From Terriglobales bacterium (GTDB lineage: Bacteria > Acidobacteriota > Terriglobia > Terriglobales > Acidobacteriaceae), in assembly GCA_035606605.1 (NCBI GenBank), contig DATNEX010000152.1, forward strand, positions 1 through 24,000: a stretch of 24,000 bases of DNA. Direction: 5' to 3'. The notes below the pieces were generated by a model. The model saw only the letters and a list, made by a program, of their open reading frames with translations. It did not search any database and was not told the origin of the DNA. Positions 726 through 23,463 of this stretch are shown here, piece after piece (position 1 is the stretch's first letter; the number at the start of each line of letters is the position of its first letter). The position numbers were made by a program, and so were the translations under genes.

Positions 726-1004
726 TCACTTTCTCCACAGTGCCGGGGAGGGTAACGCAGGGCTTCCTTCCTCTTGCATGAGGTCAAACTCATCGGCGCT
801 ATAGCAAAAATCGCCACCTCGCGGACGAATCATTACGAAGAGACTCAAAGAGAGTTTACGGCGCACCGCCGAGATCAATCCTGAGCTGGGGGTGACTCCA
901 CCTTCCGTGAGGCCACTGCACAGTTCGACGCGATGGGCTCCACCCCGTTCGGCAGCGAGGGCCGATTCGGGTGTGTCTACGCAGATTTCTAAGGTCACTT
1001 CCAT
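726..1004 (-). pseudogene. cutC: Truncated copper-homeostasis protein CutC homolog; only the N-terminal ~78 aa are CutC-like.
   Basis: [79 protein letters not shown] is collinear with E. coli CutC residues 1 to ~80 (..[33 protein letters not shown]..). Similarity ends near nt 770 and the frame stops at 726. Full-length CutC is about 240-250 aa. The ATG at 1002-1004 is preferred over the TTG at 1010. Confidence 0.6.
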
Positions 1005-1016
1005 CCGCAATCTAGG

Positions 1017-3551
1017 CTACTTAAGGCCGAGATTCAGTTGTTCGCTTAGGTAGCTCAACAGCGTAGCCGAATCATCAATGGCGAGTAATTGTTTACGAAA
1101 GTCATCCGTCATGAGCTTGCGAGCAAGCACGGAGAAAACCTGCATGTGATTGCCACCGTTCTGCGTCGCTCGCGCGGCCATCCCGATCACCATGCGTACG
1201 CCCAGAGCATCGACCGCTCCCCAGTCAATGGGCTGCGTGAACTTGAGCACGATAATTGAGCTCGCATTTATGGCATCCGTTTTGCAGTGCGGCGTAGCAA
1301 AGCCAAAACCGAGACCGGTCGAGTAGACCAATTCCCTTGACCATAATGCCTCTTCCAATTTTTCCGGATCCGATGTTCTTCCAGCGTTGCGCAGGAGATC
1401 GATGAATTCCTGCATCGCCTCTTCTTTGTTATTACTGTCGCTGTCTAAAATCATTAGTTCTTCACTCAAAAGTGGATGCGAAGAACACGTTTGCTCGGCG
1501 GACGCGAGCAGATGATTGATATCTGCGTCACTCGACAAAAGCATTTCATCGACCAGCGACCGGCAAGCGGAGGCAGAGTATGTTCGGACGATGCTTTTGA
1601 TTTTTGGGATGTTTACAACGGGCAAACTGATTTCATCGAGACCTAAGCCAAGAAACAGGGGCAAATACTTGGCGTCTGACGCCATGTCGCCGCAGATCCC
1701 AACCCATTTATCTGCTGCCCCGACTTCATCGATAATGCGCTTTAGCAAACGGATGAAGCTGGGACTCGACTGATTAGAAAGTTTGCTAACGTTGGGATTC
1801 CCACGATCCGCAGCAAAAAAGTATTGAGCCAGATCATTGGTGCCAACGCTGAAGAAATCTACCTCGTTACGAAGCTGATAGAGACTGAATGCCGCTGCGG
1901 GTACTTCGAGCATGATGCCGATGGGAATGTCTTCTCGGAAGACAGTATTCTGAGATCGGAGGTCCTCTTTTGCAGCCTTCAGTTGCTGTTTGAAAGCGAG
2001 GACCTCTTCCAGACAGGAGACCATGGGAATCAGTATGTGAACATCGCCAAACACCGAGGCACGAAGAATTGCCCGAAGCTGAACCTGCAAGAGATCCCGC
2101 TGCGTAGCATAGAGCCGTACCCCTCGCAATCCGAGAAATGGATTTTCCTCAGGGGCAAGCCCGAGATAGGGTACAGCCTTGTCGCCGCCCAGATCGAAAG
2201 TGCGAATGATGACAGGCTTTCCGCTCGCGGCTTTGAGTACTTGCTCGTAAACGGCGACTTGCTCCTTTTCAGAAGGCGGCCGTGCTTCCATGAAGAGCAT
2301 TTCTGTTCGAAAAAGGCCGATCCCATCCGCTCCATTTCCAAATGCCAAAACGGCTTCATCCTGTGCCGACGCATTCGCTCCCACGTCCAGATTGATTCCG
2401 TCCCTTGTTATGGCGGGCGAACTCGCACTGGCTTTCAAGATTTCTGTTTGACGCGACAATGTTCTTACTTCACGCGCGTAAAACCTCTCCACCGCTGGTA
2501 GCAATTCCGGAAACAACAATCCGCGATTTGCATCCACCACAATTGCCTGCCCCGTCGAAAGCAGGGACTTTGTGTGCTTAACTCCGACAACAGCCGGAAC
2601 GCCATACGAGCGGGCCAGAATAAGCGCATGGGAATTAGCGCCGGCATACTCCAGCACGATGCCTTTGAGAAAGTGGCGATCAAGCCTAAGGAACTGCCGC
2701 GGCGCGAGAGTGTCAGCCACGACAACTGAGGGCTCATGAAGAGTGATTACGGTCTTAGGCAGGTCTTTACCACAGATCTCGCTTAGGAGGTGTGCTGCAA
2801 TCTCCTCAACGTCTGCTGCACGTTCCCGAATGTACTCACTATCAGAATGACGCAACAGATCTGCAAAAAACTTTCCAGTTTCGAGTACTGCCTGAGCGGC
2901 AGATTTGTCGTTGTTTACTTGATGCGCAAGCCTTTCTGCGAAAAGAACGTCGTCCAAGAGGGCAAGCTCTGCCTGAAGTACGTCTCTGGTTTGCGAGCCG
3001 GAGCGGGTCAATTCCTCACGAATGTTGTCACGTACGTTCCTAAGTGCGCGCTTGAGGCGTTGCAGTTCTTCCTTTGGATCAGTTGCATCGTGTGAAATCG
3101 CGGCATGCGAGAGTGAAACCGAGTTAAGAAACACCACCTTACCACGTCCCACTCCGGGACTTACGGCAGAACCCGAGTAACATGCAACGCCCACCTGTTG
3201 CAGAATCCGCGGAAGAGAAAACGGCTTAGTGGACGGGCTCTTCGCAAGTGGCACATCACACGTCGGCAGAACGTGCTTAGTAAAGTCGCGAAGAGAAGTA
3301 TAGCCAAACTGTTCGTCTGCCCCATTTATCTGAACAAGGCAATTGTCGCCTTGGCGGATATCCAACGAGATGATCGAAAGAACGCTCTTGGCGTTCCCTT
3401 CGTTGTTGTTTCGCAAATTCGTGAGTGTGCATTCCGAGACAAAGCTGTTCGCGAGCGTAGCGAAATGGCTTGCTGGACGCGCATGCATGCCCGCCAACAA
3501 AGGACAAGTGAACACAAACTGCAGCGACGTGCTGCTGAGGTTTGGCGACAT
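1017..3551 (-). CDS. PTS multiphosphoryl transfer protein, a fused HPr - enzyme I - EIIA(Fru/Mtl type 2). The domain order is FryA/PtsA-like.
   Basis: 844-aa ORF. aa 1 to ~95 are HPr-like (CPLLAGMHARPAS; His23 codon at 3483-3485). aa ~125-690 are enzyme I (GANSHALILARSYGVPAVVG with His308 codon at 2628-2630; GLFRTEMLFM; IIRTFDLGGDK; LGLRGVRL; IMLEVPAAA; FFSVGTNDLAQY; ICGDMASD). aa ~696-844 are EIIA type 2 (GLGFGFATPHCKT; His755 codon at 1287-1289). The ATG at 3549-3551 lies 1 nt after the IIB stop. Confidence 0.9.
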   Translation of the reverse strand: MSPNLSSTSLQFVFTCPLLAGMHARPASHFATLANSFVSECTLTNLRNNNEGNAKSVLSIISLDIRQGDNCLVQINGADEQFGYTSLRDFTKHVLPTCDVPLAKSPSTKPFSLPRILQQVGVACYSGSAVSPGVGRGKVVFLNSVSLSHAAISHDATDPKEELQRLKRALRNVRDNIREELTRSGSQTRDVLQAELALLDDVLFAERLAHQVNNDKSAAQAVLETGKFFADLLRHSDSEYIRERAADVEEIAAHLLSEICGKDLPKTVITLHEPSVVVADTLAPRQFLRLDRHFLKGIVLEYAGANSHALILARSYGVPAVVGVKHTKSLLSTGQAIVVDANRGLLFPELLPAVERFYAREVRTLSRQTEILKASASSPAITRDGINLDVGANASAQDEAVLAFGNGADGIGLFRTEMLFMEARPPSEKEQVAVYEQVLKAASGKPVIIRTFDLGGDKAVPYLGLAPEENPFLGLRGVRLYATQRDLLQVQLRAILRASVFGDVHILIPMVSCLEEVLAFKQQLKAAKEDLRSQNTVFREDIPIGIMLEVPAAAFSLYQLRNEVDFFSVGTNDLAQYFFAADRGNPNVSKLSNQSSPSFIRLLKRIIDEVGAADKWVGICGDMASDAKYLPLFLGLGLDEISLPVVNIPKIKSIVRTYSASACRSLVDEMLLSSDADINHLLASAEQTCSSHPLLSEELMILDSDSNNKEEAMQEFIDLLRNAGRTSDPEKLEEALWSRELVYSTGLGFGFATPHCKTDAINASSIIVLKFTQPIDWGAVDALGVRMVIGMAARATQNGGNHMQVFSVLARKLMTDDFRKQLLAIDDSATLLSYLSEQLNLGLK

Positions 3552-3552
3552 G

Positions 3553-3852
3553 TCAGTGTTGAATCTTTCTGAAGATGCCTTCCGGGTTTTTTAATGCCTC
3601 CTGCAGAGGCACCTGAATAATGTTGACGCCATTGAATCGCTCGCGCCCCTCGATTTCGATATCAATGGCGAAAATTGCGACTTTGGCCTGGCGAATGTCC
3701 GTGTCTGTGAGCTTGTTTTCGATACCCATTGCTCCCTGAGTCTCGACCTTGATCTCGTGACCGAAATTCTTCGCCACGGCTTCCAACCTTGCAGCAGCCA
3801 TGTAAGTGTGGGCGATGCCTGTTGGGCAGGCAGTCACGGCGATGATCTTCAT
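3553..3852 (-). CDS. PTS fructose-family IIB component (stand-alone, 99 aa).
   Basis: MKIIAVTACPTGIAHTYMAAARLEAVAKNFGHEIKVETQG.. matches the Fru-type IIB signature with the phospho-Cys in ACPTGIAHT. The ATG (3850-3852) overlaps the IIC stop (3849-3851) as ATGA. The longer ORF start at 3912 would lie inside IIC and adds no IIB-like sequence. Confidence 0.85.
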   Translation of the reverse strand: MKIIAVTACPTGIAHTYMAAARLEAVAKNFGHEIKVETQGAMGIENKLTDTDIRQAKVAIFAIDIEIEGRERFNGVNIIQVPLQEALKNPEGIFRKIQH

Positions 3853-4937
3853 ACGGTCTCCTGGAGCTCCTGGCGGACTCCAATATTTCTGGATTTTAGG
3901 AGGTTGATGCACACGGCAGTCAGGACTGTTCCGGTGAGTATCGCGAGCAAATACGGAATGCGGTGATTGACCCCGAATAAAACAATCGGACCTCCATGAG
4001 GAGCGGGATCCCCGACTTGGTAAAGCATGGCGATGACCGCGGCAACCATGGAACCGAACATAATGCTGGGAATAACGCGCACCGGATCCGATGCTGCAAA
4101 TGGTATTGCGCCCTCAGTGATTCCAATGAGTCCCATCGCGATCGCGGCGGACCCTGCTTCGCGTTCCTCTGTACTCCAGAGTTTCTTCCTAATCAATGTA
4201 GCCAGCCCCATACCTAGCGGAGGAGTGCAGATGGCCGCCGCACAAGCGCCCATTATTTGATAATTTCCCTGACTGATCATGGCGGCGCCAAAGAAAAATG
4301 CGGTCTTGTTGACCGGACCACCCATATCAAAGGCGATCATTGCGCCGAGTGTCAGCGCCAGTAGAATGCTGTTGCCCGTACTCATGTGCAGTAAGAAAGC
4401 CGTCGCGTGCTGCATCACCGAAGCGATGGGCGGTCCAAGAACTTTGATCATGAGCACACCGACCAGGGCTCCCGAAACAATGGGAATGACGAGAATGGGC
4501 ATGATTGGGCGAACATATTTTGAAACAGGCACTTTCTTTAGACCTTCGACCAGATAACCGGCGAGAAGCCCCATTAATATTGCCCCCAGAAATCCCGCCA
4601 CTATGTCTTTCGTTCCTGGGACAGGGATTGGTACGCCCGATAAATAACCGCCGATGAAGCCGGGAACAAGTCCCGGTTTGCCAGCAATCGAATACGAGAT
4701 GTAGCCGGCAAGAACGGGCAGCATAAGAGTGAACGCAGCTTTGCCGATATCAAGCATTAATTTCAGAGTTGGCGCCTGGGAGAAATCGGGACCCTTTGAG
4801 GTCATTGCCGAGGGATCGGTAAGTTGAAGCAACCCAATCGCAAGCGCGATCAATATTCCGCCGCATGCGATGAATGGGATCGCAAATGAAACCCCTGTTA
4901 GCAAATGCTGACGCACGTTATATAGCGGCTTTGTCAT
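3849..4937 (-). CDS. PTS fructose-family IIC membrane component.
   Basis: 362-aa polytopic hydrophobic protein. The N-terminus (LLTGVSFAIPFIACGGILIALA) and later motifs (FDMGGPVNKTAFFFG, GITEGAIPFA) are typical of FruA-type IIC domains. ATG at 4935-4937. Confidence 0.9.
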   Translation of the reverse strand: MTKPLYNVRQHLLTGVSFAIPFIACGGILIALAIGLLQLTDPSAMTSKGPDFSQAPTLKLMLDIGKAAFTLMLPVLAGYISYSIAGKPGLVPGFIGGYLSGVPIPVPGTKDIVAGFLGAILMGLLAGYLVEGLKKVPVSKYVRPIMPILVIPIVSGALVGVLMIKVLGPPIASVMQHATAFLLHMSTGNSILLALTLGAMIAFDMGGPVNKTAFFFGAAMISQGNYQIMGACAAAICTPPLGMGLATLIRKKLWSTEEREAGSAAIAMGLIGITEGAIPFAASDPVRVIPSIMFGSMVAAVIAMLYQVGDPAPHGGPIVLFGVNHRIPYLLAILTGTVLTAVCINLLKSRNIGVRQELQETV

Positions 4938-5020
4938 TCGTTATGTGGCGATGACATATCGGGCATGCCTGCAATTCTCTACATTGTCCTCATGGCCGGT
5001 TTCTTAGTATGTGTGAATAG

Positions 5021-5040
5021 TCCTATTGTCGAAAATAGGA
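5021..5040. promoter_or_regulatory. Perfect inverted repeat TCCTATT-N6-AATAGGA between the AraC stop and the PTS operon; candidate operator or weak terminator hairpin.
   Basis: Read directly: 5021-5027 tcctatt, 5028-5033 gtcgaa, 5034-5040 aatagga. It lies 84-103 nt upstream of the IIC ATG on the minus strand. No T-tract follows on either strand. Confidence 0.3.
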
Positions 5041-5061
5041 TAAATAACACGTTTGTTGCAT

Positions 5062-6039
5062 TTAGGTAACCTTTTCGTGCGAAAGAGCGGCCGCGTTCTC
5101 GCCGTCCGTAGCGATGATCGAGAGTCGAAGCGTGCTAATTTTTGTCTTTGGCTTGTTTGCCAAACTGCGCGTGCGATATTCGGTCGGCGTCACCTTGGAG
5201 ATTTTCTTAAAAACACGACAGAAGTATGCCGTATCAGTGTAGCAACAATTGGCGGCGATCTCCTTCAATGTCATGCTGTAGTTCTGAAGCATGAACTTTG
5301 CCCGGTTCACGCGGACGAGGTTGAGATAATCGTTGAAACGCATCAACCCTTCTTTGCGGAAAAGTCGAGATACATGATTAGGGGCCAGGCCGAAATGTTC
5401 CGCCACACTCTCCCGCGTCATTGGGTTCTGTAAATTCTCTTGTAGATAGAGACAGATGGATTCGTAAGTACGGATAGCCTTGCGCAGCTTTCGATGCTGC
5501 GGCGCCTTGAGCAGTCGTAAACAAGCATGTAGCAAGGACTCGGTCAACAACCGGGCCAAAGGGCCTTCCGAGCGATCGGCCGCCAAAACCATAAGTGCGG
5601 CGAGAATGCCGTGCGTGGGAACGTCGTAGCCGCCATGCACGCTGGCCTTCAGACCCGCAGTGGGCATTTGCGTGCCCCCTTTGTGCCGAACCAAACTGAC
5701 TCCAATCTGTTTCACACCAAAAAGAATAGTGAGTACATCAATTCTTTCCACCCAGTCCGGCTTGTTCCAGGCGTGATCCGGAACAAAAACTGCGTGCCCG
5801 CGTACAGGCCGAATCGTTTTTGTACTGCCATTTTGCGAGATTTCCATCGTGTGACAACCCGAAAGCGGAATAGAGAGACGCGGGAAGTTGGTGACGTACG
5901 CCAGCGCCGGAGGCACAGTCGTTCCGTCGCTGAAATGTACGTGACGAACGCGGCTCTCGCGCAGAAAAGCTTCGAGCTCGTGGATCACAATCTGGTTTGC
6001 GGAGAGTCGTGCACCTCGCGAAGCAACAGTTCGTTTCAC
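5062..6039 (-). CDS. AraC/XylS-family transcriptional regulator.
   Basis: The C-terminal double-HTH region is typical of the family (..MTRESVAEHFGLAPNHVSRLFRKEG..MTLKEIAANCCYTDTAYFCRVFKKISKVTPTEYR). It follows an N-terminal ~180-aa putative ligand-binding domain. The start is uncertain: GTG at 6037-6039, or an in-frame GTG about 17 codons downstream. Confidence 0.85.
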   Translation of the reverse strand: MKRTVASRGARLSANQIVIHELEAFLRESRVRHVHFSDGTTVPPALAYVTNFPRLSIPLSGCHTMEISQNGSTKTIRPVRGHAVFVPDHAWNKPDWVERIDVLTILFGVKQIGVSLVRHKGGTQMPTAGLKASVHGGYDVPTHGILAALMVLAADRSEGPLARLLTESLLHACLRLLKAPQHRKLRKAIRTYESICLYLQENLQNPMTRESVAEHFGLAPNHVSRLFRKEGLMRFNDYLNLVRVNRAKFMLQNYSMTLKEIAANCCYTDTAYFCRVFKKISKVTPTEYRTRSLANKPKTKISTLRLSIIATDGENAAALSHEKVT

Positions 6040-6040
6040 A

Positions 6041-6073
6041 GAACGTTACATTAGTACAAACAATGTTTACTGT
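6041..6073 (+). promoter_or_regulatory. Copy 1 of a conserved 33-nt upstream element (GAACGTTACATTAGTACAAACAATGTTTACTGT).
   Basis: Ungapped 29/33 identity with 17579-17611 on the same strand. It sits in the divergent AraC/TBDR intergenic region, directly abutting the predicted AraC start. Confidence 0.5.
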
Positions 6074-6089
6074 CCACTAGCAGTTTTCG

Positions 6090-6118
6090 TTGACTGTCGC
6101 ATCGATTTCCCACATACT
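6090..6118 (+). promoter_or_regulatory. Candidate sigma70-like promoter for the TBDR gene (TTGACT-N17-CATACT).
   Basis: TTGACT at 6090-6095, a 17-nt spacer, then CATACT at 6113-6118, about 105 nt upstream of the TBDR ATG. This is pattern matching only; promoter consensus in this phylum is poorly defined. Confidence 0.3.
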
Positions 6119-6223
6119 CCGTGACCGGCGCTATATATCGGTGCGCTCTGCAAGGTCACTGGCCATCGTGAAAGCGCGTTTTTCGTGGCTGAACTCGCTG
6201 TTCAAGTTGTCAAGGAGCTGGAG

Positions 6224-9200
6224 ATGAAGATCCTCTCAGTGTCGACACCTTCTGTATCTGCTTGCAATTTCACACTCCGCATCTGTGGCAAGACCCTGGC
6301 GCTCTGTGTGCTGTTGGCACTCACGCGACCACAATTGCATGCCCAAGCCTTCAGTGGCATCAACGGGACGGTGACTGATACGAGCGGCGCCGCTGTTGCC
6401 GGCGCGAGCATCACCGCGACGAACGTTGACACCAACGTCTCGAAAAAAGCAGTGGCCACGACCGCCGGCACTTATTACATTACCGACCTGATCCCGGGGA
6501 CCTACACAGTGCGGGTGCAACAGTCGGGCTTCAGGGCCTTTGTCCAGAACAACGTGAACGTTGTAGGCGGAGCTACGTCCACGGCGAATGCGGTGCTGCA
6601 GGCAGGTAGTGTTGAAGAACAGGTTGAGGTCATTGCTTCAGCGGTCGCGCTGCAGACCGAGCAACCGGAGATCGGCACCGAGATCAACCAGACCCTCCTG
6701 ATGGATTTGCCGCAGGAGATCGCCGGCTCAAATCGCCAGATTGACGCCTTTATCTTCCTCGCCCCCGGCGTCACGGGTAGCGGATTCAGTCATCGGATCA
6801 ACGGCGGCGTCGACGAGCAGACAGAGGTGATGTTCAATGGCGTCCCCGAGTCTTGGTCAGAAACGTCGGGTTTCACGTTCTGGAACCAGCCGCCGTACGA
6901 CTCGATCAAAGACGTCAATGTCTTGACGGGTACGTTTTCTGCACAGTACGGCCTGGGGCAAGGGGTTGAGCAGTACACAGCGAGGTCGGGAACCAACCAG
7001 ATTCATGGAGATGCATTCGGGTTTTACCGCGATGCGTTCTTTGACGCGCCGGGAGCGACCGCCGATGTTTTCGGAAACAATAGAGGCCAGAAGGGCGAAC
7101 CCAATACCGACCATGAAACTAACTGGGGAGGGTCCGTAGGGGGTCCGGTTTGGATCCCCAAGCTGTATGACGGACGAAACAAGGCCTTCTGGTTCGTCAG
7201 CTATGACCGTTACCGGCTGGCTCAAGGACAGCAACCGATCACCATGCCAACGGCTGCGGAGGTTCAGGGGGATTTCAGCGGCTTAGTCAATCCCGTTACC
7301 GGTGTACCAATACCGATTTTCGTTCCGTTGGCATGGGGCACCACTCCATCACTCATACCGACTGGTTGTAACCTTGGAGCGCTGGGCTATACACCAGGAC
7401 AGCAGTTTCCTGGCAACAAGATCGATCCGAGTTGTTTCAGCACCGTTTCACAGGGGTTGCTCCAGTATGTGCCAGCTCCGACTACATCATCGGTTGAAGT
7501 CAAAAACTTTATCCCCAGTTTTACTCCTCTCAATTTGGAGACAGACTTCAGCGTCAACGTAGACTACAACCTCACCGATAAACAGTCTTTACATGGCTGG
7601 TACTGGCGACAATACTTCCCTGTTCCGTCCGGGACAGAGTTCACTTCGGCTCCCATCGATACCTCATTCGTCAATACCGTTCTGGGAAGAGGCGTTGATA
7701 TTACGTATGCCAACACCCTTTCTTCGCACTTCGTGGTGACCGGGGGGTTCCTATACGTATTTCAGAACAACGACTTTAGTCCGACTCACTTCTATCCTGG
7801 CACTTTCCCAGGTGTCGCCCCGTTCAGCTCGTCCGCTAATATTTTGCCGGGCATTAACTTCACAGGCGGCCCTTGGGAACCGGACAACTGGGGCGCACGA
7901 AATGGCGGCTTGCCAACACAAAATCACAAGACCGGATATTCGATTATGGGGAACGCCCTGTGGACGCACGGGCGCCACACGGTCAATTTTGGAGTGGATA
8001 TTCGAAAATCGAAGCAGCTCGATTTCGAATGCGATGGATGCGCAGGGAGTCTGACCTTCAACTCCACTACAACGGCCGATCCAAACGAGCCGACCCCTGG
8101 CACGAACACCGGCAACGGATTCGCTAGCTTCCTACTCGGAAACGCGGACTCAGCCAGCCGAGCGGGCGCGGCTCCGACGATTCTAACCAATACGTACCTA
8201 GCTCCTTATTTCCAGGACGATACGCAGATTACTTCGAAGCTCAAGGTCAACTGGGGCGTTCGGTGGGATTTGGCGTTTCCCTTCAGCAACGACTTCCATT
8301 CCAATCAACTCACCTTCTTCAACCCGAACGTTCCGAATGCCGGTGCGATCAATCCAGCTACCGGGCAGCCGCTCTTGGGCGGTATGGCGCAGCTGGGCAA
8401 AGGATGCCCAGTATGCATCGGCTGGAGCCAAATGGACATGATGTGGAATCACTTTAGCCCGCGAGTCGGCTTTACCTACCAGCTAAATAACAAGACTGTT
8501 GTGCTCGGGGGAGCGTCGTGGTATTGGCTGGACACTGGCGGCTTCGAATACGGCGTCAACAAGGTAGCTGTGAACTACGGAAACAATTTGAATGGTTCTG
8601 AGACCTTCGACAGCGGGAGCAAGGGATCAATTGGTAGCTACAGCATCCCAAGCTATGGCTTGTGGGACAGCGGGGTGAGTGGAGCAGCGGGACCGCTTCC
8701 TGCACCGGCGCAGCTTCCTCTAACCACGGATTTCTTCAACACCCAGTCTCCACAAGCGATGACCAAGCACGTTCGGCAAGCCTACGACGAACAATTTGTC
8801 CTGGGCATCCAGCGGGAATTACCGTGGAACATGTTCCTCTCAGTGTCCGGAGTGCATACCCACGATGTACACCTACCGTCCTTACTGGCGGGCAGTGGGA
8901 GGCTGAATTATCTCAATTATGGATTCGTGCAGAGCGTATGCCCTCCTGGGCTGGCAAACTCAACTGATTGTGTCCTAGGTCAATCCTGGACCTCTCCGGC
9001 GGCGCAGACGCTCATGGCGTCAAACGCCTCGCAGTATAATCTTGCTCAATATACGTACCCCGGAAGTGATCCGTCTTGCCCGGGGATGACCCTCTGGGTT
9101 CCATATATCAATTTCTGCGATGACTATGGGTCTGGGGGTTTGACCGCTCGAGCATTTCTGAAATATCCGCAGTTCCGGGGCATCACGAACAACTTCGATA

Positions 9201-10012
9201 CGAATGGTGCCGACAAGTACAACGCGCTGCAGATGAGTTTACGCAAGCGCACCGGAAGCGGGCTGACGTTCCTCGTGTCCTATACACTTTCGAGATACTT
9301 CACGAATACCGATAGCGGATTCTCGACTTTCAATTTCAGAGGCCTGGATCCGGGAAACCCCAGGAGGGAGTGGTCGGTTGGCAATGACGATCGCACGCAT
9401 GTGATCTCGATCGCGGGAGTTTATGAACTGCCTTTCGGCAGGGGCAAGAAGTTATTGAACAATGCCAATCGGATAGTGAACAACGTAGTGGGTGGGTGGT
9501 CGTTTAGCTTCGTCAATTATTACGAAAGTGGAACGCCGGTACAGTTTACGTCCTGCAACGGCGTGCTCAATTGCACTCCGCTCCTCTATACGGCAGGGTA
9601 CAATCGTCCCAACATCCAGAACACAAATTTCAATGTGGACTGGCATAACTACTATAACAACCTCAATGGGGGAACCACGCCAATCTTTAATACTTCCATC
9701 TTCAGTTCCCCTGGCGCTTGGACCATAGGCAATGCAGGATTTCTCTACAACAACTTCCGAAATCCTTGGTACAACGAGGAAGATTTTTCTCTGGGAAAGA
9801 AGTTTTTCGTCAACGAACGCGTAAATTTCGAGGTGAAGATGGAATACTTCAACGCGCTAAACCGATTTAATATCGGTAACTGTATGGATACGAATGTCGG
9901 CGATGCCAATTTCGGTCTCAATAGCAGCCCCGGCGTCCCTTGTCAGGCTGCAAATAATAACGGTGCGATCATACCGAGACAAGGCCAGGTGAAGTTGCAG
10001 GTTAATTTTTAG
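6224..10012 (+). CDS. TonB-dependent outer-membrane receptor with an N-terminal carboxypeptidase-regulatory-like domain.
   Basis: AAGGAG at 6212-6217 precedes the ATG at 6224. The signal peptide is MKIL..LALTRPQLHAQA. The CarboxypepD_reg-like fold reads GINGTVTDTSGAAVAGASITATNVDTN..GTYYITDLIPGTYTVRVQQSGF. A plug region (DVNVLTGTFSAQYG) and a long beta-rich barrel follow, ending in the OMP-typical terminal aromatic residue (..KLQVNF). The ORF-track start at 6185 (GTG) adds 13 residues before the signal peptide. Confidence 0.9.
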   Translation: MKILSVSTPSVSACNFTLRICGKTLALCVLLALTRPQLHAQAFSGINGTVTDTSGAAVAGASITATNVDTNVSKKAVATTAGTYYITDLIPGTYTVRVQQSGFRAFVQNNVNVVGGATSTANAVLQAGSVEEQVEVIASAVALQTEQPEIGTEINQTLLMDLPQEIAGSNRQIDAFIFLAPGVTGSGFSHRINGGVDEQTEVMFNGVPESWSETSGFTFWNQPPYDSIKDVNVLTGTFSAQYGLGQGVEQYTARSGTNQIHGDAFGFYRDAFFDAPGATADVFGNNRGQKGEPNTDHETNWGGSVGGPVWIPKLYDGRNKAFWFVSYDRYRLAQGQQPITMPTAAEVQGDFSGLVNPVTGVPIPIFVPLAWGTTPSLIPTGCNLGALGYTPGQQFPGNKIDPSCFSTVSQGLLQYVPAPTTSSVEVKNFIPSFTPLNLETDFSVNVDYNLTDKQSLHGWYWRQYFPVPSGTEFTSAPIDTSFVNTVLGRGVDITYANTLSSHFVVTGGFLYVFQNNDFSPTHFYPGTFPGVAPFSSSANILPGINFTGGPWEPDNWGARNGGLPTQNHKTGYSIMGNALWTHGRHTVNFGVDIRKSKQLDFECDGCAGSLTFNSTTTADPNEPTPGTNTGNGFASFLLGNADSASRAGAAPTILTNTYLAPYFQDDTQITSKLKVNWGVRWDLAFPFSNDFHSNQLTFFNPNVPNAGAINPATGQPLLGGMAQLGKGCPVCIGWSQMDMMWNHFSPRVGFTYQLNNKTVVLGGASWYWLDTGGFEYGVNKVAVNYGNNLNGSETFDSGSKGSIGSYSIPSYGLWDSGVSGAAGPLPAPAQLPLTTDFFNTQSPQAMTKHVRQAYDEQFVLGIQRELPWNMFLSVSGVHTHDVHLPSLLAGSGRLNYLNYGFVQSVCPPGLANSTDCVLGQSWTSPAAQTLMASNASQYNLAQYTYPGSDPSCPGMTLWVPYINFCDDYGSGGLTARAFLKYPQFRGITNNFDTNGADKYNALQMSLRKRTGSGLTFLVSYTLSRYFTNTDSGFSTFNFRGLDPGNPRREWSVGNDDRTHVISIAGVYELPFGRGKKLLNNANRIVNNVVGGWSFSFVNYYESGTPVQFTSCNGVLNCTPLLYTAGYNRPNIQNTNFNVDWHNYYNNLNGGTTPIFNTSIFSSPGAWTIGNAGFLYNNFRNPWYNEEDFSLGKKFFVNERVNFEVKMEYFNALNRFNIGNCMDTNVGDANFGLNSSPGVPCQAANNNGAIIPRQGQVKLQVNF

Positions 10013-10020
10013 CCGACACC

Positions 10021-10044
10021 CTGCCGGGCTACAATCCCCGGCAG
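10021..10044 (+). terminator. GC-rich hairpin just after the TBDR stop; possible partial terminator or attenuator.
   Basis: ctgccggg (10021-10028), loop ctacaatc, cccggcag (10037-10044), giving a perfect 8-bp stem. Only a weak T content follows (gttatc). Confidence 0.4.
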
Positions 10045-10078
10045 GTTATCATGGCGGCTTCCGGATTAGTATTCTCTT

Positions 10079-11248
10079 GTGCTAATTTCCCCTGCGTCTC
10101 GGCGCACAACAACTGCTTACTCCTATGCGCATCGAGCGGTTTTGTTGGCTTCGATCGTGCATGTTCTCGGTGCGCCTGCGATGGCACGAGCCGCAGCAGC
10201 CTCTCCGAGTAAAAGCGGGTCCTCGAGGCAGCAAACGAGCTATGGATCGTCGTCTCCCGCAGCCGGAAGAGCCGCTAAGCAGACCGAGACTGCGCAGGCT
10301 TCGGAATTAGCGGAAGCGAAATCCTTTTTGCAAAAGGGGCTCCTCGCCGAGGCAGAAAAAGCCACGCGCCAATTCCTTCATTCGCATGCAGATTCCGCCG
10401 AAGGGCATTACATCCTCGGTCATATTCTCTTCGATGAAGTCCGCGAAAAGTACGTCGGGGAAGAAAAGAAGGAAGGCGAAAACTTTCGGTACAGCGATAC
10501 CGTGGACAATCCATTAGTCACGATGCGCGACGCGAAAGCGCGGGAGTCACTCGCGGAGCTTTCCGCCGGGGCACGATACCGCGCACCTGGCGCTTTGGAC
10601 TTGAAGATAGTCGGGCTCGACTATCTGCTGCTAAAGGACCTACCCTCGGCCGAGAAGTGGCTCACTGCGTCCACCACACTGAACCCCAAGGACGAGCAAA
10701 CGTGGTTTTACCTGGGGCGGACGAAATACAGCCAGACTAAGTATTCTTCTGCAATCGAAGCTTTCCAGCACTGCTTGAAACTCGATCCCCGAAATCCTAC
10801 CGCAGAATACAACGTGGGACTTTCCTTTGAGGGCCTGAACCAAAACGACGAAGCCATTCAAGCGTATCAAAACGCGATCGCCTGGCAGGAGCAGAACGAA
10901 ACCAAGTCCCCTGATTCCCTTGTCGGTCTCGCCAGACTATACCTGCGTCAAAATCAGCCAGAAAATGCTCTTCCTTATCTCTTGCAGGCGGTTGCGGCGT
11001 TCCCCGAATTATCTTTGGCGCACGAGGAATTGGGGAAAGCCTTTTCGGTTCTGCGCCGCTTGCACGAGGCGCAAGAGCAGTTGGAGAAAGCGGTCCAGCT
11101 CTCGCCACAAAAGGCTCCTCTGCGATGCCTGCTTGGCCAGGTTTACCAACAGGAGAAAATGACTGCAAAAGCTCAGTCTGAATTTGAGCGCTGCACCGCC
11201 CTACGGACCTCCGAATCGCAACCCGCGGGGGTCAACCAAACACATTGA
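10079..11248 (+). CDS. Secreted tetratricopeptide-repeat protein (TPR-A), paralog of the 15000-16151 protein.
   Basis: GTG start with signal-like N-terminus (..AVLLASIVHVLGAPAMARAAAA). TPR-like helical repeats are present (WFYLGRTKYSQTKYSSAIEAFQHCLKLDP.., AIQAYQNAIAWQ..). It is collinear with TPR-B over ~300 aa, roughly 40% identity by eye. Confidence 0.8.
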   Translation: MLISPASRRTTTAYSYAHRAVLLASIVHVLGAPAMARAAAASPSKSGSSRQQTSYGSSSPAAGRAAKQTETAQASELAEAKSFLQKGLLAEAEKATRQFLHSHADSAEGHYILGHILFDEVREKYVGEEKKEGENFRYSDTVDNPLVTMRDAKARESLAELSAGARYRAPGALDLKIVGLDYLLLKDLPSAEKWLTASTTLNPKDEQTWFYLGRTKYSQTKYSSAIEAFQHCLKLDPRNPTAEYNVGLSFEGLNQNDEAIQAYQNAIAWQEQNETKSPDSLVGLARLYLRQNQPENALPYLLQAVAAFPELSLAHEELGKAFSVLRRLHEAQEQLEKAVQLSPQKAPLRCLLGQVYQQEKMTAKAQSEFERCTALRTSESQPAGVNQTH

Positions 11249-13008
11249 CGTTTCCTTTTCGCCAATTCGATCGCCGCTCCGTGTTGCTAGTCGTTGCGTT
11301 TATAGCGGCTTACATCGCAAGCGACGCCAACAGCGCGTTCGGTGGGCAATCCGCCTCGGTGCCGCTTCCGCTCCCAAAGTTGGTCCCCGGAAAATTCAGA
11401 GATATAACTTCCGAACTGAGCATCGACTTCCGCTATCTCTCTTCTCATACCACGAAAAAATACCTCATCGAAACTATGGGAACGGGAGCTGCGCTCTTCG
11501 ATTTTGACAATGACGGGCGCTTGGATATTTTTTTGGTAAACGGCGCCCCGTTGACCGACCCCACGCCGAAAACAGCTATCCCGCAAAAGACGGGCCCTCA
11601 ATACTGGAATCGTTTGTATCACCAGAAGCGAGATGGCAGGTTCGAAGATGTGACCGAAAAAGCGGGACTCCAGGGCGTCGGATACGGAATGGGCGTTGTC
11701 GTTGGAGATTATGACAACGATGGGTTCGAAGATCTGTACGTGACGGCTTATGGAGGCAATCGGCTTTATCACAATAATGGCAACGGCACATTCACGGACG
11801 TCACTGAAAAGACGGGCGTAGCTGGCGAAGGATGGTCAACGAGCGCCGCCTGGGTGGACCTCGACAATGATGGCCTGCTGGACTTAGTCGTTCTCCGTTA
11901 TCTCGACTGGGATTTCAGCGACGTGTGGTGTGGTACGCATAAAGAAGGATATCGTTCATACTGCACGCCCGACATTTTCAAGCCTATCGCGCCACTGGTT
12001 TATCACAATGAGGGGAACGGCCGCTTCACGGAAGTCTCTCAGAAGATCGGCATAGCGAAACCTGGGCGGGGATTAGGAATTGCTCTCGCAGATTACGACC
12101 GCGATGGGCATATCGACGTCTTTATCGCCAACGATTCCATGTTTGAATTCCTCTACCACAAGAAGGTCGATGGCACGTTCGAAGAGGTCGCTTTGCCTGC
12201 CGGCGTTGCCGTCGACAGTGACGGCAACACCTATGCTGGGATGGGTGTCGATTTCGCTGACTATTACAACGATGGCCTTCCGGATCTGCTCGTCACGGAC
12301 TTGGGAAACCAAAGATATGCGCTGTACAAGAATAATGGAGACGGAAGCTTTACCTACGCAAGCTTCTCGTCCGGAATTGGAACCATCACGCAGCGATTCT
12401 CTGGCTGGGGCGTTCGTTTCATGGACTACGACAACGACGGCTGGAAGGATGTTATGGTCGCGCAGGGACATGATTTGGACAACGTGGAGCTGACCACGCC
12501 CACTCTGCGTTATCGCGAGCCGATGCTTCTCGCCCGAAATATGGGCAAGGATTTCGCAGATGTTTCTGCGCAATCGAGCAGTGTATTTCAGATTCCCTGG
12601 GTCGGGCGTGGTATGGCCGTCGGAGACATCGATAATGACGGACGGCTGGACGCGCTGGTTACTACGAACGACGGACCGGTTCATGTCCTGCACAACGAGA
12701 CTCAGACTGCGAATCATTGGCTTCTCCTGAAACTTGTGGGGCACAAGAGCAATCGGGACGCGATTGGCGCAGAGGTGAGAGTGAAGACTCAGCATGGGTC
12801 TCAGCTTGGTATCGTCACCACTGCAAGCAGCTATCTCTCGTCCAGCGACAAACGCCTGCACTTCGGCCTGGGCACGGACGAAGTAGTCGAGGAGATGGAG
12901 ATCCGATGGCCAAGTGGCATCATTCAGAAGCTGCAGAATGTGCACAGTGACCGCATAATGCAGATCGATGAACCTGGGCCGAATGAGTCCTCGGCTTCGA
13001 AAAAATGA
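11245..13008 (+). CDS. CRTAC1-family protein: FG-GAP/VCBS repeats plus a C-terminal ASPIC/UnbV domain.
   Basis: Repeated Ca-binding-like loops (FDFDNDGRLDIFLVNG, GDYDNDGFEDLYVT, VDLDNDGLLDLVV, MDYDNDGWKDVMV, GDIDNDGRLDALV) are interspersed with NRLYHNNGNGTFTDVTEKTG-type strands. The C-terminus reads NHWLLLKLVGHKSNRDAIGAEVRV..SYLSSSDKRLHFGLG..IRWPSG. The TTG start at 11245 overlaps the TPR-A stop (TTGA). The N-terminus FDRRSVLLVVAFIAAYIA is signal-like. Confidence 0.9.
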   Translation: MTFPFRQFDRRSVLLVVAFIAAYIASDANSAFGGQSASVPLPLPKLVPGKFRDITSELSIDFRYLSSHTTKKYLIETMGTGAALFDFDNDGRLDIFLVNGAPLTDPTPKTAIPQKTGPQYWNRLYHQKRDGRFEDVTEKAGLQGVGYGMGVVVGDYDNDGFEDLYVTAYGGNRLYHNNGNGTFTDVTEKTGVAGEGWSTSAAWVDLDNDGLLDLVVLRYLDWDFSDVWCGTHKEGYRSYCTPDIFKPIAPLVYHNEGNGRFTEVSQKIGIAKPGRGLGIALADYDRDGHIDVFIANDSMFEFLYHKKVDGTFEEVALPAGVAVDSDGNTYAGMGVDFADYYNDGLPDLLVTDLGNQRYALYKNNGDGSFTYASFSSGIGTITQRFSGWGVRFMDYDNDGWKDVMVAQGHDLDNVELTTPTLRYREPMLLARNMGKDFADVSAQSSSVFQIPWVGRGMAVGDIDNDGRLDALVTTNDGPVHVLHNETQTANHWLLLKLVGHKSNRDAIGAEVRVKTQHGSQLGIVTTASSYLSSSDKRLHFGLGTDEVVEEMEIRWPSGIIQKLQNVHSDRIMQIDEPGPNESSASKK

Positions 13009-13015
13009 TGCGCCG

Positions 13016-14962
<1,947 letters not shown>

Positions 14963-14990
14963 ATGCCTATAGAGCCGTATAATCTTCGTC

Positions 14991-15010
14991 GAGGAAAACG
15001 TGTTTTCCTC
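14991..15010. promoter_or_regulatory. Perfect 9-bp inverted repeat GAGGAAAAC-gt-GTTTTCCTC spanning the SD-like GAGGA and the GTG start of TPR-B.
   Basis: Read directly: 14991-14999 gaggaaaac, 15000-15001 gt, 15002-15010 gttttcctc. A TATAAT hexamer lies just upstream at 14978-14983. Confidence 0.3.
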
Positions 15011-16151
15011 CAGGCAGACTCCGATGCATAGGCTATTCAGGCGGGGAATTCTGATTTTTCGGCAACGGCCGTTTCTTGCTTTTTGCCTCATAGTTGTTTT
15101 CGTCTTCGCTGCCGGACGCGCCATCGCCCAATCGCCCTCCCCGGCATCGGCTCAGGCCCCAGATTCGAACGATGACAAAACTGTTTCGAGCCCGACGGCG
15201 CTGCCCAAATCGCTCGATCTCAAGTTCGCAGAGGCAGAATCGCTGATGGAAAAGGGACAACTGAACGAGGCCGAAGCGGCCATCCGCCAGGATTTGAAGA
15301 CAGCGCCACAGTCGGCTGCTGCACATTTTCTGCTTGGCTACATCCTATACAAGGAAATTCAAGCGGAAGCAAAACGAGTTGATCCCAACCCGAATGCCGT
15401 CTATGCGGCACCCACGAAATCTCTCATTGAGCTCCGGGAGAAAAACGCAAGAGAATCCTTGGGCGAATTCACTGTGGGGGCCCGCTACCGCACTCCCAGC
15501 GCATTCGATTTGAAAATCGTTGCCATGGATTACATTTTGCTTGGTGATTTCACGGACGCCGATAAGTGGCTGACGCGATCCCTCCAAGGGAATCCAACTG
15601 ATTCCGACGGCTGGTACCAGCTTGGTCGCACGAAGTACAACGAGAACCGGTTCACCGAAGCGATCGACGCATTCAAGAAGTGCCTGGCGATCGATACAAC
15701 AAACATCAAAGCAGAAGAGAACCTGGGATTGTCTTATGCAGGACTGGGCGACGATGCGGAAGCTATCAAAGCCTACCAAACCGCAATCGATTGGCAGGCC
15801 AGCTCAGGCAGCAAGGATGTCGAAGCTTACTTTGCTCTGGGCACCTTGTTATTGGGCGAAAATCGTCCCCAAGATGCCATTCCGGTATTAATTCAGGCGA
15901 CACAAATTGCCCCGTCCGTATCTCAAGGTCACGAATTGCTGGGCCAGGCCTACATTCAGACACAAATCCTTCCTAAAGCGCAGACGGAATTGGAAGAAGC
16001 GGTGAGCCTCTCGCCTGATGTTGGTCGATTGCATTGTGTTCTCGGCCAAACCTATCGAAAAGAGGGACTCACCACGAAAGCAAAAACGGAATTCGATCGC
16101 TGCTCTGCGCTACAGAAAGAGCACCCATCGGATCGCAGTACTATACAGTGA
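15000..16151 (+). CDS. Secreted tetratricopeptide-repeat protein (TPR-B), paralog of the 10079-11248 protein.
   Basis: Signal-like N-terminus (..FLAFCLIVVFVFAAGRAIAQ). It shares blocks with TPR-A (ARESL.E...GARYR.P.A.DLKIV..DY.LL, WLT.S....P.D, LGRTKY, AI.AF..CL, EAI.AYQ.AI.WQ, C.LGQ.Y). The start is either GTG at 15000 (GAGGA 4 nt upstream) or ATG at 15024. Confidence 0.8.
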   Translation: MFSSRQTPMHRLFRRGILIFRQRPFLAFCLIVVFVFAAGRAIAQSPSPASAQAPDSNDDKTVSSPTALPKSLDLKFAEAESLMEKGQLNEAEAAIRQDLKTAPQSAAAHFLLGYILYKEIQAEAKRVDPNPNAVYAAPTKSLIELREKNARESLGEFTVGARYRTPSAFDLKIVAMDYILLGDFTDADKWLTRSLQGNPTDSDGWYQLGRTKYNENRFTEAIDAFKKCLAIDTTNIKAEENLGLSYAGLGDDAEAIKAYQTAIDWQASSGSKDVEAYFALGTLLLGENRPQDAIPVLIQATQIAPSVSQGHELLGQAYIQTQILPKAQTELEEAVSLSPDVGRLHCVLGQTYRKEGLTTKAKTEFDRCSALQKEHPSDRSTIQ

Positions 16152-16169
16152 TTTGGCGGCGGGCCAAAT
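16151..16169 (+). terminator. Small hairpin at the TPR-B stop (ATTTGGC-ggcgg-GCCAAAT).
   Basis: A 7-bp perfect stem read directly, in the 77-nt gap between convergent genes. No clear U-tract follows. Confidence 0.3.
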
Positions 16170-16191
16170 GTCATCTGCAGGGCCAAATCGA

Positions 16192-16210
16192 GCGCATCGC
16201 CGAGATGCGC
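16192..16210 (-). terminator. Small hairpin downstream of the convergent minus-strand TPR gene (GCGCATC-gccga-GATGCGC).
   Basis: A 7-bp perfect stem read directly. On the minus strand it is followed by tcgatttgg, which is modestly T-rich. Confidence 0.3.
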
Positions 16211-16228
16211 AAAGTTGGTTGATCTCGC

Positions 16229-17452: not shown

Positions 17453-17578
17453 GGCTCGTTCGATTCTACTCTGGGTCTACGTATTTCAATCCTGCGACTT
17501 GCACCCGTAATCGCCACGGCGCGTCCGAGCGGGCCCGCAGCAACAGTCTGGATGTGATCAAGGATGCTCAGACCGTGG

Positions 17579-17611
17579 GAACGTGACTTTAGTACAAATA
17601 ATGTTAACTGT
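17579..17611 (+). promoter_or_regulatory. Copy 2 of the conserved 33-nt upstream element (GAACGTGACTTTAGTACAAATAATGTTAACTGT).
   Basis: 29/33 ungapped identity with 6041-6073 on the same strand. It sits in the 374-nt divergent region between TPR-C and GH38. A shared ATACTCC block follows at 17643-17649 (compare 6114-6120). Confidence 0.5.
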
Positions 17612-17826
17612 GTCCTATTTCTTTTCTCGGCCTTTCTGTCCGATACTCCCATATCGAAATGCTTCTGCTTCTGTTCGGCAGCTTTCAACAAGCAAGTCGC
17701 CTAAAGGTTCTCTTTATACAATTCCTAAAGTCATTCAAAATGCGCTGCGTTGGGTCAACGTTCGTTTTGAGTATTGGGGGACTAATGCATATTTCACCCG
17801 CTAGCACAGCCAACTCGGCCAAGTTA

Positions 17827-23133: not shown

Positions 23134-23463
23134 ATGGCAAAGACGGATGCTCTCCAGGGTTCGCTAGATCTGCTCGTCCTCAAGATATTGTCGCGGCGCC
23201 CGCGACTGCACGGATACGCCATCATGGCTGCCATCGCCGGTACATCCGGCGAAGTACTGCGCGCAGAGGAGGGGTCGCTTTACCCCGCGCTGTATCGGAT
23301 GGAGGAAGCAGGTTGGATTCGTGCCGAGTGGATCAAGAAAGGCTCCGGCCGCCGGGCCCGCATCTACGAATTGACCGCCGCAGGCAAAAAGCAACTGGGA
23401 GTGGAAGAATCGCGCTGGCAGTCAGTCGTATTGGCAATCAACCGGGTTCTCCGGGAGGCCTGA
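23134..23463 (+). CDS. PadR-family transcriptional regulator.
   Basis: 109 aa with the canonical PadR winged-helix signature: LDLLVLKILSRRPRLHGYAIMAAI....EGSLYPALYRMEEAGWIRAEW......RRARIYELTAAGKKQL. Confidence 0.9.
   Translation: MAKTDALQGSLDLLVLKILSRRPRLHGYAIMAAIAGTSGEVLRAEEGSLYPALYRMEEAGWIRAEWIKKGSGRRARIYELTAAGKKQLGVEESRWQSVVLAINRVLREA

Follow-up and report, generated by a model that had tools for sequence, protein, structure and literature searches.

Can a phosphotransferase system (PTS) serve as the inner-membrane step of a glycan-foraging system that relies on a TonB-dependent receptor (TBDR)? This question is raised by a 24,000-nucleotide stretch of DNA from a Terriglobales bacterium of the Acidobacteriota (assembly GCA_035606605.1, contig DATNEX010000152.1, positions 1 to 24,000), hereafter the window, in which the gene for an AraC-family regulator sits between a complete fructose-family PTS, made of IIC, IIB and an HPr-Enzyme I-EIIA (HPr-EI-EIIA) fusion, and a large TBDR, with a secreted alpha-mannosidase of glycoside hydrolase family 38 (GH38) encoded 7.5 kb away. 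The gene content is as stated in a preliminary description of the window. TBDR-centred glycan loci usually end in major facilitator superfamily (MFS) or ATP-binding cassette (ABC) importers, and PTS-mediated sugar uptake has, to our knowledge, been little described in Acidobacteriota.

The same description had proposed that one AraC regulator controls the TBDR, the GH38 enzyme and the PTS, the last of these being the inner-membrane step, and comparative genomics now supports this proposal along four lines: (i) a third operator at the PTS promoter, (ii) both operator classes beside AraC orthologues in 26 loci, (iii) AraC-PTS-GH38 linkage across three phyla and (iv) orthology of the regulator with a ManR-type activator. 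Judging from these sequence comparisons, the locus is likely to be a ManR-type mannose regulon that has been enlarged into a TBDR-based glycan-foraging system, with the PTS as its inner-membrane step.

An operator-promoter element upstream of three operons

The TBDR and GH38 genes are preceded, on the same strand, by copies of a 33-bp element (6041-6073 and 17579-17611, respectively) that are identical at 29/33 positions. The preliminary description had noticed that the secreted GH38 shares this upstream element with the TBDR, and it was right on both counts, since the enzyme does have a Sec signal peptide. A degenerate 23-mer pattern has two matches in the window versus 0 expected (100 shuffles), and beyond the TBDR and GH38 copies there is no site within 5 mismatches in the whole 6.5-Mb genome. 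For operator alignment, 78 loci encoding AraC relatives were retrieved. The 33-bp element is the core of a 48-bp operator-promoter block, GGAACGTTACGTTAGTGCAATTAATGTTAAATGTCTACTATTTCTTTT, followed by a variable spacer and then by CATACT; in acidobacterial loci, it immediately adjoins the AraC orthologue's start codon and faces away from that gene.

A weight matrix was built from 27 unique copies of the element and the whole genome (~13 million positions) was scanned with it, using a threshold of 8 bits. Only three positions score at least 8 bits, each upstream of an operon and in the correct orientation, which are P3 (61.4 bits, the best match in the genome), P1 (50.7 bits) and P2 (9.7 bits). 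P1 (6040-6118, plus strand), ahead of the TBDR operon, comprises an operator (6040-6087) with two AANGTY direct repeats 20 bp apart, which abuts the GTG start codon of the AraC gene, a TTGACT -35 hexamer (6090-6095) and a CATACT -10 hexamer (6113-6118). P3 (17578-17647, plus strand), upstream of GH38, combines an operator (17578-17625) with a GATACT -10 hexamer (17642-17647) at the canonical spacing of 16 nt. P2 (5006-5075, minus strand), upstream of IIC, combines a weak operator (5028-5075) with a -10-like CATACT (5006-5011), and CACATACT trails this operator at the expected distance. P2 was absent from the training set of the matrix and is the single best remaining site in the genome.

How general is this element? 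The P1 sequence is identical in one related genome (G020), where a TBDR orthologue (83% identical) occupies the same position, and is conserved in two others (G001 and G013); the element accompanies the AraC gene even where the adjoining TBDR is only 28% identical. Matrix matches were found in 35 related loci, 26 of which have both a strong copy, divergent from AraC, and a weak copy, upstream of IIC, the weak class having a consensus of its own, AAAgGTTACtTgAGTaCAAcAAACGTTCCATCTCTCCTGTTTC, that is conserved separately from the strong class. A NATACT hexamer follows 16-17 nt after the element in 29/33 strong and 28/31 weak copies (the range for P2-type copies being 16-18 nt), and AANGTY recurs at element positions 3 and 23 in ~90% of copies, as a pair of direct repeats with a 20-bp spacing. 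With CATACT as the -10, the pair would extend from about -74 to about -35, an arrangement typical of AraC-family activators (AraC at araI, XylS, RhaS). A promoter scan picks out TTGACT-17-CATACT at P1, where 9 extra bp separate operator and -10 in comparison with related loci; the scan overall is not enriched over shuffles and serves as a consistency check for P1 only. An Rfam scan of the window gave no match, which means that the long leader of GH38 holds no known riboswitch.

The other side of the same block faces the regulator gene. In nearly all acidobacterial loci (6037-6087 in the window), the GTG start of AraC abuts the distal operator repeat (TTCAC/GGAAC, the slash marking the junction), and the AraC strand of the operator reads TGGACA-17 nt-TAATGT, ending 8 nt ahead of the GTG. 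This suggests that the araC transcript may be leaderless, or have a very short leader, with a promoter overlapping the operator, in which case autoregulation would be possible.

A regulator of the ManR/YpdC family

What might the regulator sense? The AraC-family activator (5062-6039, minus strand; HTH_18 and HTH_AraC domains) belongs to the family of ManR (VC1825) and YpdC. ManR of Vibrio cholerae is an AraC-type activator (Lee et al. 2022, PMC9392796). Its Kd for mannose-6-phosphate is 152 nM, its affinity for fructose-1-phosphate is ~2700-fold weaker, and its targets are its own gene, the fructose-family EIIABC mannose permease ManP (VC1826) with manA, and VC1820-24 (PMC9392796). Its sites require the pentamer AATCC, which is found at -61 to -65 (manP) and -72 to -76 (manR) (PMC9392796).

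A homologue of the window's regulator is present in 99/151 Vibrio genomes. In 8 of the 14 loci inspected, it is divergent from EIIABC followed by a phosphomannose isomerase (PMI) gene, with extra fructose-family components on its other side, which is the published VC1820-27 layout; it is by this layout and by AATCC boxes that we equate the Vibrio homologue with ManR. The window and Vibrio proteins are 35-40% identical over their full length (~275 residues), sensor domain included, and are reciprocal best hits (188-208 bits versus at most 49 for the next match and, in the reverse direction, 192-210 versus 57). Their operators can be compared as well. Vibrio intergenic regions hold GCATTTACTGGATnnTTGTAAC, the reverse complement of which, GTTACAAnnATCCAGTAAATGC, contains AATCC, and the Vibrio box GTTACAAnAATCCAGTAAATGC aligns with the acidobacterial GTTACGTTAGTGCAATTAATGT at 15/22 positions. 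The position of AATCC is occupied in the window by AGTGC or AGTAC, at about -63 to -59 when start sites are placed from the -10 hexamers only. Between AraC and IIC, related boxes are also present in Opitutia, Verrucomicrobiota and Phycisphaerae loci, some with a literal AATCC, which occurs in the Opitutia and Verrucomicrobiota relatives. Taken together, these comparisons support the window's regulator as the probable orthologue of a ManR-type, mannose-6-phosphate-sensing activator of a fructose-family mannose PTS. Escherichia coli K-12 YpdC, the gene for which adjoins the Fry system, is 33% identical to the window's regulator (E 1e-42) and appears to be a ManR-family protein itself.

The PTS encoded immediately downstream of this regulator is self-contained. 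IIC, a probable mannose permease of the fructose family (3849-4937, minus strand; TIGR01427, 284 bits), is followed by a fructose-like IIB (3553-3912, minus strand; PF02302 and TIGR00829), which probably starts at an ATG (3852) that overlaps the stop codon of IIC (ATGA), and by a FryA-like HPr-EI-EIIA(Fru) multiphosphoryl transfer protein of 844 aa (1017-3551, minus strand; Pfam and NCBIfam domains). The phosphorelay residues are all intact (GMHARP in HPr, SHALILAR in EI, TPHCK in EIIA and the cysteine motif CPTGIAHT in IIB), and the Enzyme I of the fusion is the sole match above the TIGR01417 cut-off in the window's genome (6.5 Mb, G000). An HPr-EI-EIIA domain order (Pfam), separate IIB and IIC, and an adjacent YpdC-like AraC amount to a Fry/Frw-type organisation. 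The fusion is 37% identical to E. coli K-12 FryA over its full length, IIB is 46% identical to FryB and IIC 28% identical to FryC, and the best NCBIfam models of IIB and IIC are the E. coli fructose-like ones. The top match of IIC is the ManP-like gene located beside a ManR-like AraC and PMI in 4/4 Vibrio genomes (46-48% identity).

A cassette linked to GH38 across phyla

Does the association between regulator, PTS and GH38 extend beyond the window? In a survey of the retrieved loci by tblastn and clustering of all open reading frames (ORFs), AraC, IIC, IIB and HPr-EI-EIIA were found together in 43/50 loci. The identity of the cassette AraC with that of the window is 58-80% in Acidobacteriota, 35-46% in Verrucomicrobiota, Opitutia and Phycisphaerae, and 34-40% in Tolumonas, Vibrio and Necropsobacter. 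A GH38 orthologue follows EI in the same operon in loci from Bryobacterales (L037), Acidobacteriota (L043), Verrucomicrobiota (L046) and Phycisphaerae (L053); GH38 is also in the same operon as the PTS in L025, and its orthologue is divergent from AraC in L017, L018 and L020.

The commonest acidobacterial layout looked GH38-free within the 10-kb flanks with which loci had been retrieved, but in 5/5 such genomes checked the P1 operon closes with the GH38 orthologue (68-73% identical). This operon begins at the strong operator and runs in the order c5 lipoprotein, TBDR, c9, S53 sedolisin-like peptidase (c6) and GH38, with gaps of -4, 35, 10 and 23 bp; an example is the five-gene operon of L104 (G193:C6:36000-55500; 2427-18381, minus strand). 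There is no separate operator ahead of the operon-embedded GH38 in 5 other Acidobacteria, which fits co-transcription of GH38 from P1. The window's genome is without c5, c9 and S53 and has a different TBDR with TPR and CRTAC1-like partners, but its GH38 has been kept, 7.5 kb away, under its own operator copy, as would be expected if selection acts on GH38 co-regulation.

In the family as a whole, the AraC-PTS cassette is patchy (3/24 sampled genus mates and 7/150 sampled family genomes). Together with the status of its Enzyme I as the only one in the window's genome, this makes PTS capacity look accessory in this lineage, where the PTS was probably acquired horizontally. Among an even sample of 150 family genomes, in which relatives are not independent, the PTS fusion is found in 7, six of them orthologous, and 6/6 genomes with an orthologous fusion have an orthologous GH38, adjacent in 4; an orthologous GH38 occurs in only ~17/144 sampled family genomes without the orthologous PTS. 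The preliminary description had named a survey of gene neighbourhoods in relatives as a check on its proposal, and this check does not refute it, AraC and PTS being rare, yet accompanied by a GH38 orthologue wherever they occur.

A predicted route for mannose

Which sugar would such a system deliver? The GH38 gene (plus strand; four GH38 Pfam domains and two C-terminal beta-sandwich modules) probably starts at 17827 and ends at 22182, the start of the longest ORF (17659-22182, 1507 aa) being, in all probability, too far upstream. The start at 17827 yields a Sec signal peptide, MDFARSKLAPVVGLVSLLLGSAASA, with Q as the next residue, just ahead of the metal-binding motif HLDTEWRW. The enzyme is the only GH38 in the genome, and its nearest solved relatives are Ams1-type enzymes, which trim free oligomannose. 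An N-terminal signal peptide is present within the ORF of every full-length linked GH38 orthologue but that of L055, the N-terminus of which is not clearly of this kind. GH38 enzymes are exo-mannosidases that release mannose. No 1-phosphofructokinase is found above the family cut-off in the genome, nor is there one among the ~45 loci examined, and a PMI-like gene adjoins manC on contig C184. The preliminary description held that the substrate cannot be read from the sequence, which now seems too cautious, as mannose can be named as the best-supported candidate for the PTS substrate.

The following mechanism, in which we infer the binding of the regulator to the element, its inducer, the sugar specificity and the location of GH38 (periplasm or outside the cell), would account for these observations. 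The AraC regulator would bind, in dimeric form, a pair of direct repeats of ~20 bp with an AANGTY core at three sigma-70-type promoters, P1 driving TBDR-TPR-CRTAC1-CRTAC1-TPR, P3 the secreted GH38 and the weaker P2 IIC-IIB-(HPr-EI-EIIA). The extracytoplasmic GH38 exo-alpha-mannosidase would act on alpha-mannosides, for instance oligomannose glycans, fungal mannan or mannoproteins, and so free mannose, and passage of the glycan or of fragments of it through the outer membrane would be the task of the TBDR. Mannose would be imported by the self-contained fructose-family PTS as mannose-6-phosphate, which a PMI encoded elsewhere in the genome would feed into glycolysis, and which, by analogy with V. 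cholerae ManR, would be the inducer, closing a feed-forward loop over P1, P2 and P3. It had been proposed that GH38 trims outside the cell and that the TBDR then imports the products. We retain both roles but no fixed order, since import by the TBDR followed by periplasmic trimming by GH38 fits equally well.

Weighing the alternatives

Several observations weigh against this mannose regulon. On the operator side, P2, at 9.7 bits, is a weak site in the window's genome and extends into the end of the AraC gene, and the 9 extra bp and good -35 hexamer of P1 mean that this promoter may depend less on an activator. On the substrate side, IIC favours ManP-like proteins over other Vibrio fructose-family IICs narrowly (259-274 versus 225-250 bits), manA is found neither in the window nor in the acidobacterial loci, so that it is not co-transcribed with the permease there, and in V. 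cholerae fructose is a further substrate of ManP and fructose-1-phosphate a further ligand of ManR (PMC9392796). Finally, the cassette has other neighbours elsewhere. It lies beside a PFL-like glycyl-radical enzyme (frw-type) in Necropsobacter rosorum (L057, 10837-17883) and beside the YpdE and YpdF aminopeptidases (fry-type) in E. coli K-12 (L086), not beside GH38, so the family is not uniformly tied to mannose and its cargo may differ between lineages. The neighbours in the Verrucomicrobiota, Opitutia and gammaproteobacterial loci include a helicase, a histidine kinase, Ig-domain proteins, PFL and serine dehydratase, and Pfam annotation of these neighbours revealed no further mannose enzymes.

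One alternative is the same regulon with another cargo. In place of free mannose, the PTS would import an alpha-mannoside or mannosyl conjugate of small size (mannobiose, Man-GlcNAc or a fragment of a mannosyl-peptide), and GH38 would only trim the substrate to that size. The fructose-family MngA of E. coli does carry a mannoside, and the window's IIC scores 205 bits on the MngA model; moreover, in most acidobacterial loci S53 peptidases share an operon with GH38, two aminopeptidases are encoded in the fry operon of E. coli and a TBDR implies import of oligomers. We nevertheless judge this to be unlikely. The mode of action of GH38 enzymes, which release mannose, speaks against it, as do the lack of any cytoplasmic glycosidase linked to the cassette in the loci examined and the fact that the nearest characterised regulator senses mannose-6-phosphate (PMC9392796). 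An ordinary PTS for fructose or another hexose, with a regulator that happens to control glycan genes too and GH38 products that are not PTS substrates, seems to us decidedly unlikely. It would sit well with the best NCBIfam models, which are fructose or fructose-like, with fructose transport by V. cholerae ManP and with the weak binding of fructose-1-phosphate by ManR (PMC9392796), but would leave unexplained both the lack of a 1-phosphofructokinase (above the cut-off in the genome, or at all in the ~45 loci) and a linkage with secreted GH38 that has been kept across three phyla.

The pairing of GH38 with a fructose-family PTS is also that of E. coli mngAB, and the GH38 matches the MngB model, if weakly, which together might point to import and phosphorylation of an alpha-mannoside by the PTS and hydrolysis of the phospho-mannoside by GH38 in the cytoplasm. 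This pathway is very unlikely and we reject it on account of the Sec signal peptides on the window's GH38 and nearly all linked orthologues and of a score on the MngB model (80 bits) that is far from the cut-off of 1138; in addition, the nearest solved GH38 relatives are of the Ams1 type and no GntR-type MngR is present. As for accidental adjacency, in which the repeated element would be a duplicated promoter fragment without a common regulator, it draws some strength from the rarity of AraC and PTS among close relatives (3/24 genus mates and 7/150 family genomes) and from the scars of rearrangement and gene decay in the window, but is hardly credible. In 35 loci from several phyla, the operator is conserved with AraC and its distance to a -10 hexamer is constant, the third genome-wide matrix match falls exactly at the PTS promoter and GH38 co-occurs in 6/6 genomes with an orthologous PTS; it is operator conservation, along with the genome-wide uniqueness of the three sites, that led us to reject this explanation. 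A ManR-type mannose regulon extended to a TBDR and a secreted GH38 is the reading that we retain.

Other genes and features of the window

The TBDR (1275 aa; CarboxypepD_reg, Plug and OMP_b-brl_4 domains in Pfam) is encoded at 6185-10012 on the plus strand, with a probable ATG start at 6225 preceded by AAGGAG. It is followed on the same strand by genes for a TPR protein, two CRTAC1-like FG-GAP/ASPIC proteins and another TPR protein (10079-16151; Pfam), and the gaps along the TBDR-TPR-CRTAC1-CRTAC1-TPR series (66 bp, -4 bp, an overlap and 37 bp) suggest that these are probably distal genes of the TBDR operon. In L017, a third, P2-type operator copy (L017:153-200) lies ahead of an extra IIB paralogue (IIB'), followed by CRTAC1-like and TPR genes, so that TPR/CRTAC1 genes seem to be recurrent members of the regulon. 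Another TPR protein (16229-17452, minus strand; Pfam) is encoded divergently from GH38, and its relatives accompany GH38 in L017, L018 and L025. No window ORF has a SusD-family match in Pfam, hence there is no SusC/SusD pair.

The two C-terminal modules of GH38 (20692-21279 and 21646-22179) are copies of a ~180-aa module without a Pfam match. In other Acidobacteria, the S53 peptidase (c6) carries the module too, at its C-terminus, as does c9 of the same operon (L023:2960-3493 and L012:2685-3227). An AlphaFold2 model of the module (pLDDT 79.6) is a beta-sandwich whose only strong match in the PDB is AziU2/U3 of azinomycin biosynthesis (TM 0.81, 19% identity). Since the fold search returned CBM35 and CBM6 only marginally, a reading as carbohydrate-binding module was set aside, and the module says nothing about the substrate. 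At their ends, both c6 and c9 have a hydrophobic or basic anchor that resembles PEP-CTERM, with one more Ig-like segment after it; c5 is lipoprotein-like, and neither c5 nor c9 has a Pfam match.

The start of the contig holds a GH30 fragment (2-307), 65-73% identical to tandem GH30 genes located beside the AraC-PTS cassette in L030 and L032, and a truncated cutC (726-1010, minus strand) covering only profile positions 2-77 of 202. Both fragments look like remnants of rearrangement. A candidate IIB relic downstream of cutC was dismissed (tblastn E 0.09, not significant). At the other end, an ORF downstream of GH38 (22204-22995, 263 aa) has a sub-threshold TrbI-like match and is not conserved beside GH38 elsewhere, and a PadR-family regulator (23134-23463) and the start of an ADOP-family (MacB-like) permease (23465-23998) form a separate unit.

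Implications

What emerges is a complete stand-alone PTS that a common operator appears to tie to the operon of an outer-membrane receptor and to a secreted alpha-mannosidase, a wiring that recurs in three soil/peat phyla (Acidobacteriota, Verrucomicrobiota and Phycisphaerae). This outlines a testable model of how abundant peat and soil bacteria might harvest mannose from mannans and glycoproteins, provides an operator motif that could be used to predict the regulon in metagenomes, and bridges the characterised ManR system of V. cholerae and the uncharacterised YpdC/Fry/Frw systems of E. coli. The S53 peptidase in the ancestral operon would suggest glycoproteins as the natural substrate. A more ambitious idea, which is attractive but on balance doubtful, is that in soil Acidobacteriota, Verrucomicrobiota and Planctomycetota the ManR/YpdC-Fry cassette represents an ancient module for "mannoprotein foraging" that spreads horizontally. 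A self-contained PTS, often the only one in the cell, would then serve a SusD-less TBDR system as its dedicated inner-membrane step, and secreted GH38 and acid-active S53 peptidases would strip fungal or plant high-mannose glycoproteins. Were this idea true, it would offer the first lead to the substrate class of E. coli Fry/Frw, that is, mannose-derived sugars or glycopeptide fragments. Literature searches on fryA/ypdC, on frwC/fryC and on Acidobacteria with PTS and GH38 revealed no functional precedent.

Comparison with known systems

The closest known system is V. cholerae ManR-ManP-ManA, in which the gene for an AraC-type activator also lies beside a fructose-family PTS permease (PMC9392796). 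The two systems share a regulator gene that adjoins an operator copy and a predicted feed-forward logic whereby the sugar, once transported and phosphorylated, acts as inducer; their operators appear homologous (GTTAC..A.T.CA..AA.G, AATCC position included), that of the window lying ~60 bp upstream of the predicted start site. Unlike in Vibrio, the IIC and IIB of the permease are here separate proteins, accompanied by a dedicated HPr-EI-EIIA fusion that supplies the sole Enzyme I of the genome, manA is outside the locus and the pentamer is AGTGC or AGTAC rather than AATCC. The Vibrio ManR regulon is without GH38, TBDR operon or S53 peptidase, whereas GH38 and the TBDR operon would belong to it here, and S53 as well in related genomes. 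The cryptic Fry/Frw PTS of E. coli, with YpdC, has the same HPr-EI-EIIA order, separate IIB and IIC and an adjacent YpdC-type AraC, but the Fry operon encodes the YpdE and YpdF aminopeptidases and the Frw type PflD and PflC, with neither GH38 nor TBDR.

In the E. coli mannosylglycerate system, MngR-MngA-MngB, a fructose-family PTS is likewise paired genetically with a GH38 enzyme. However, MngB works in the cytoplasm, where its substrate is the import product in phosphorylated form, the regulator is of the GntR type and the transporter is a fused EIIABC, whereas GH38 is predicted to be exported here, the regulator is an AraC and the PTS is split. A more general parallel is with carbohydrate-utilisation loci containing a TBDR (CUT loci) and with the mannan polysaccharide-utilisation loci (PULs) of Bacteroidota, in which a co-regulated cluster brings together a TBDR, degradative enzymes, a transporter for the inner membrane and a dedicated regulator. 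The window has the components of a CUT locus, since TBDR, PTS, GH38 and AraC lie within 21 kb and have in common a genome-unique operator, from which their co-regulation is predicted. In mannan PULs, oligomers are imported and then depolymerised to mannose in the periplasm (reviewed in PMC13543919), a logic similar to the one proposed here. The window differs from CUT loci and mannan PULs in having no SusD partner, a PTS rather than an MFS or ABC transporter at the inner membrane, a cytoplasmic AraC that probably senses a phosphorylated monosaccharide instead of a periplasmic sensor, and TPR and CRTAC1-like proteins as TBDR partners.

In conclusion, the parts are known, be it ManR-type regulation of a fructose-family mannose PTS, Fry-type fusions or TBDR-based CUT loci, and it is their combination that seems undescribed in the literature searched. 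What sets this locus apart is the apparent extension of a ManR regulon to a TBDR operon and a secreted GH38, with a self-contained PTS at the inner membrane, in three non-proteobacterial phyla.

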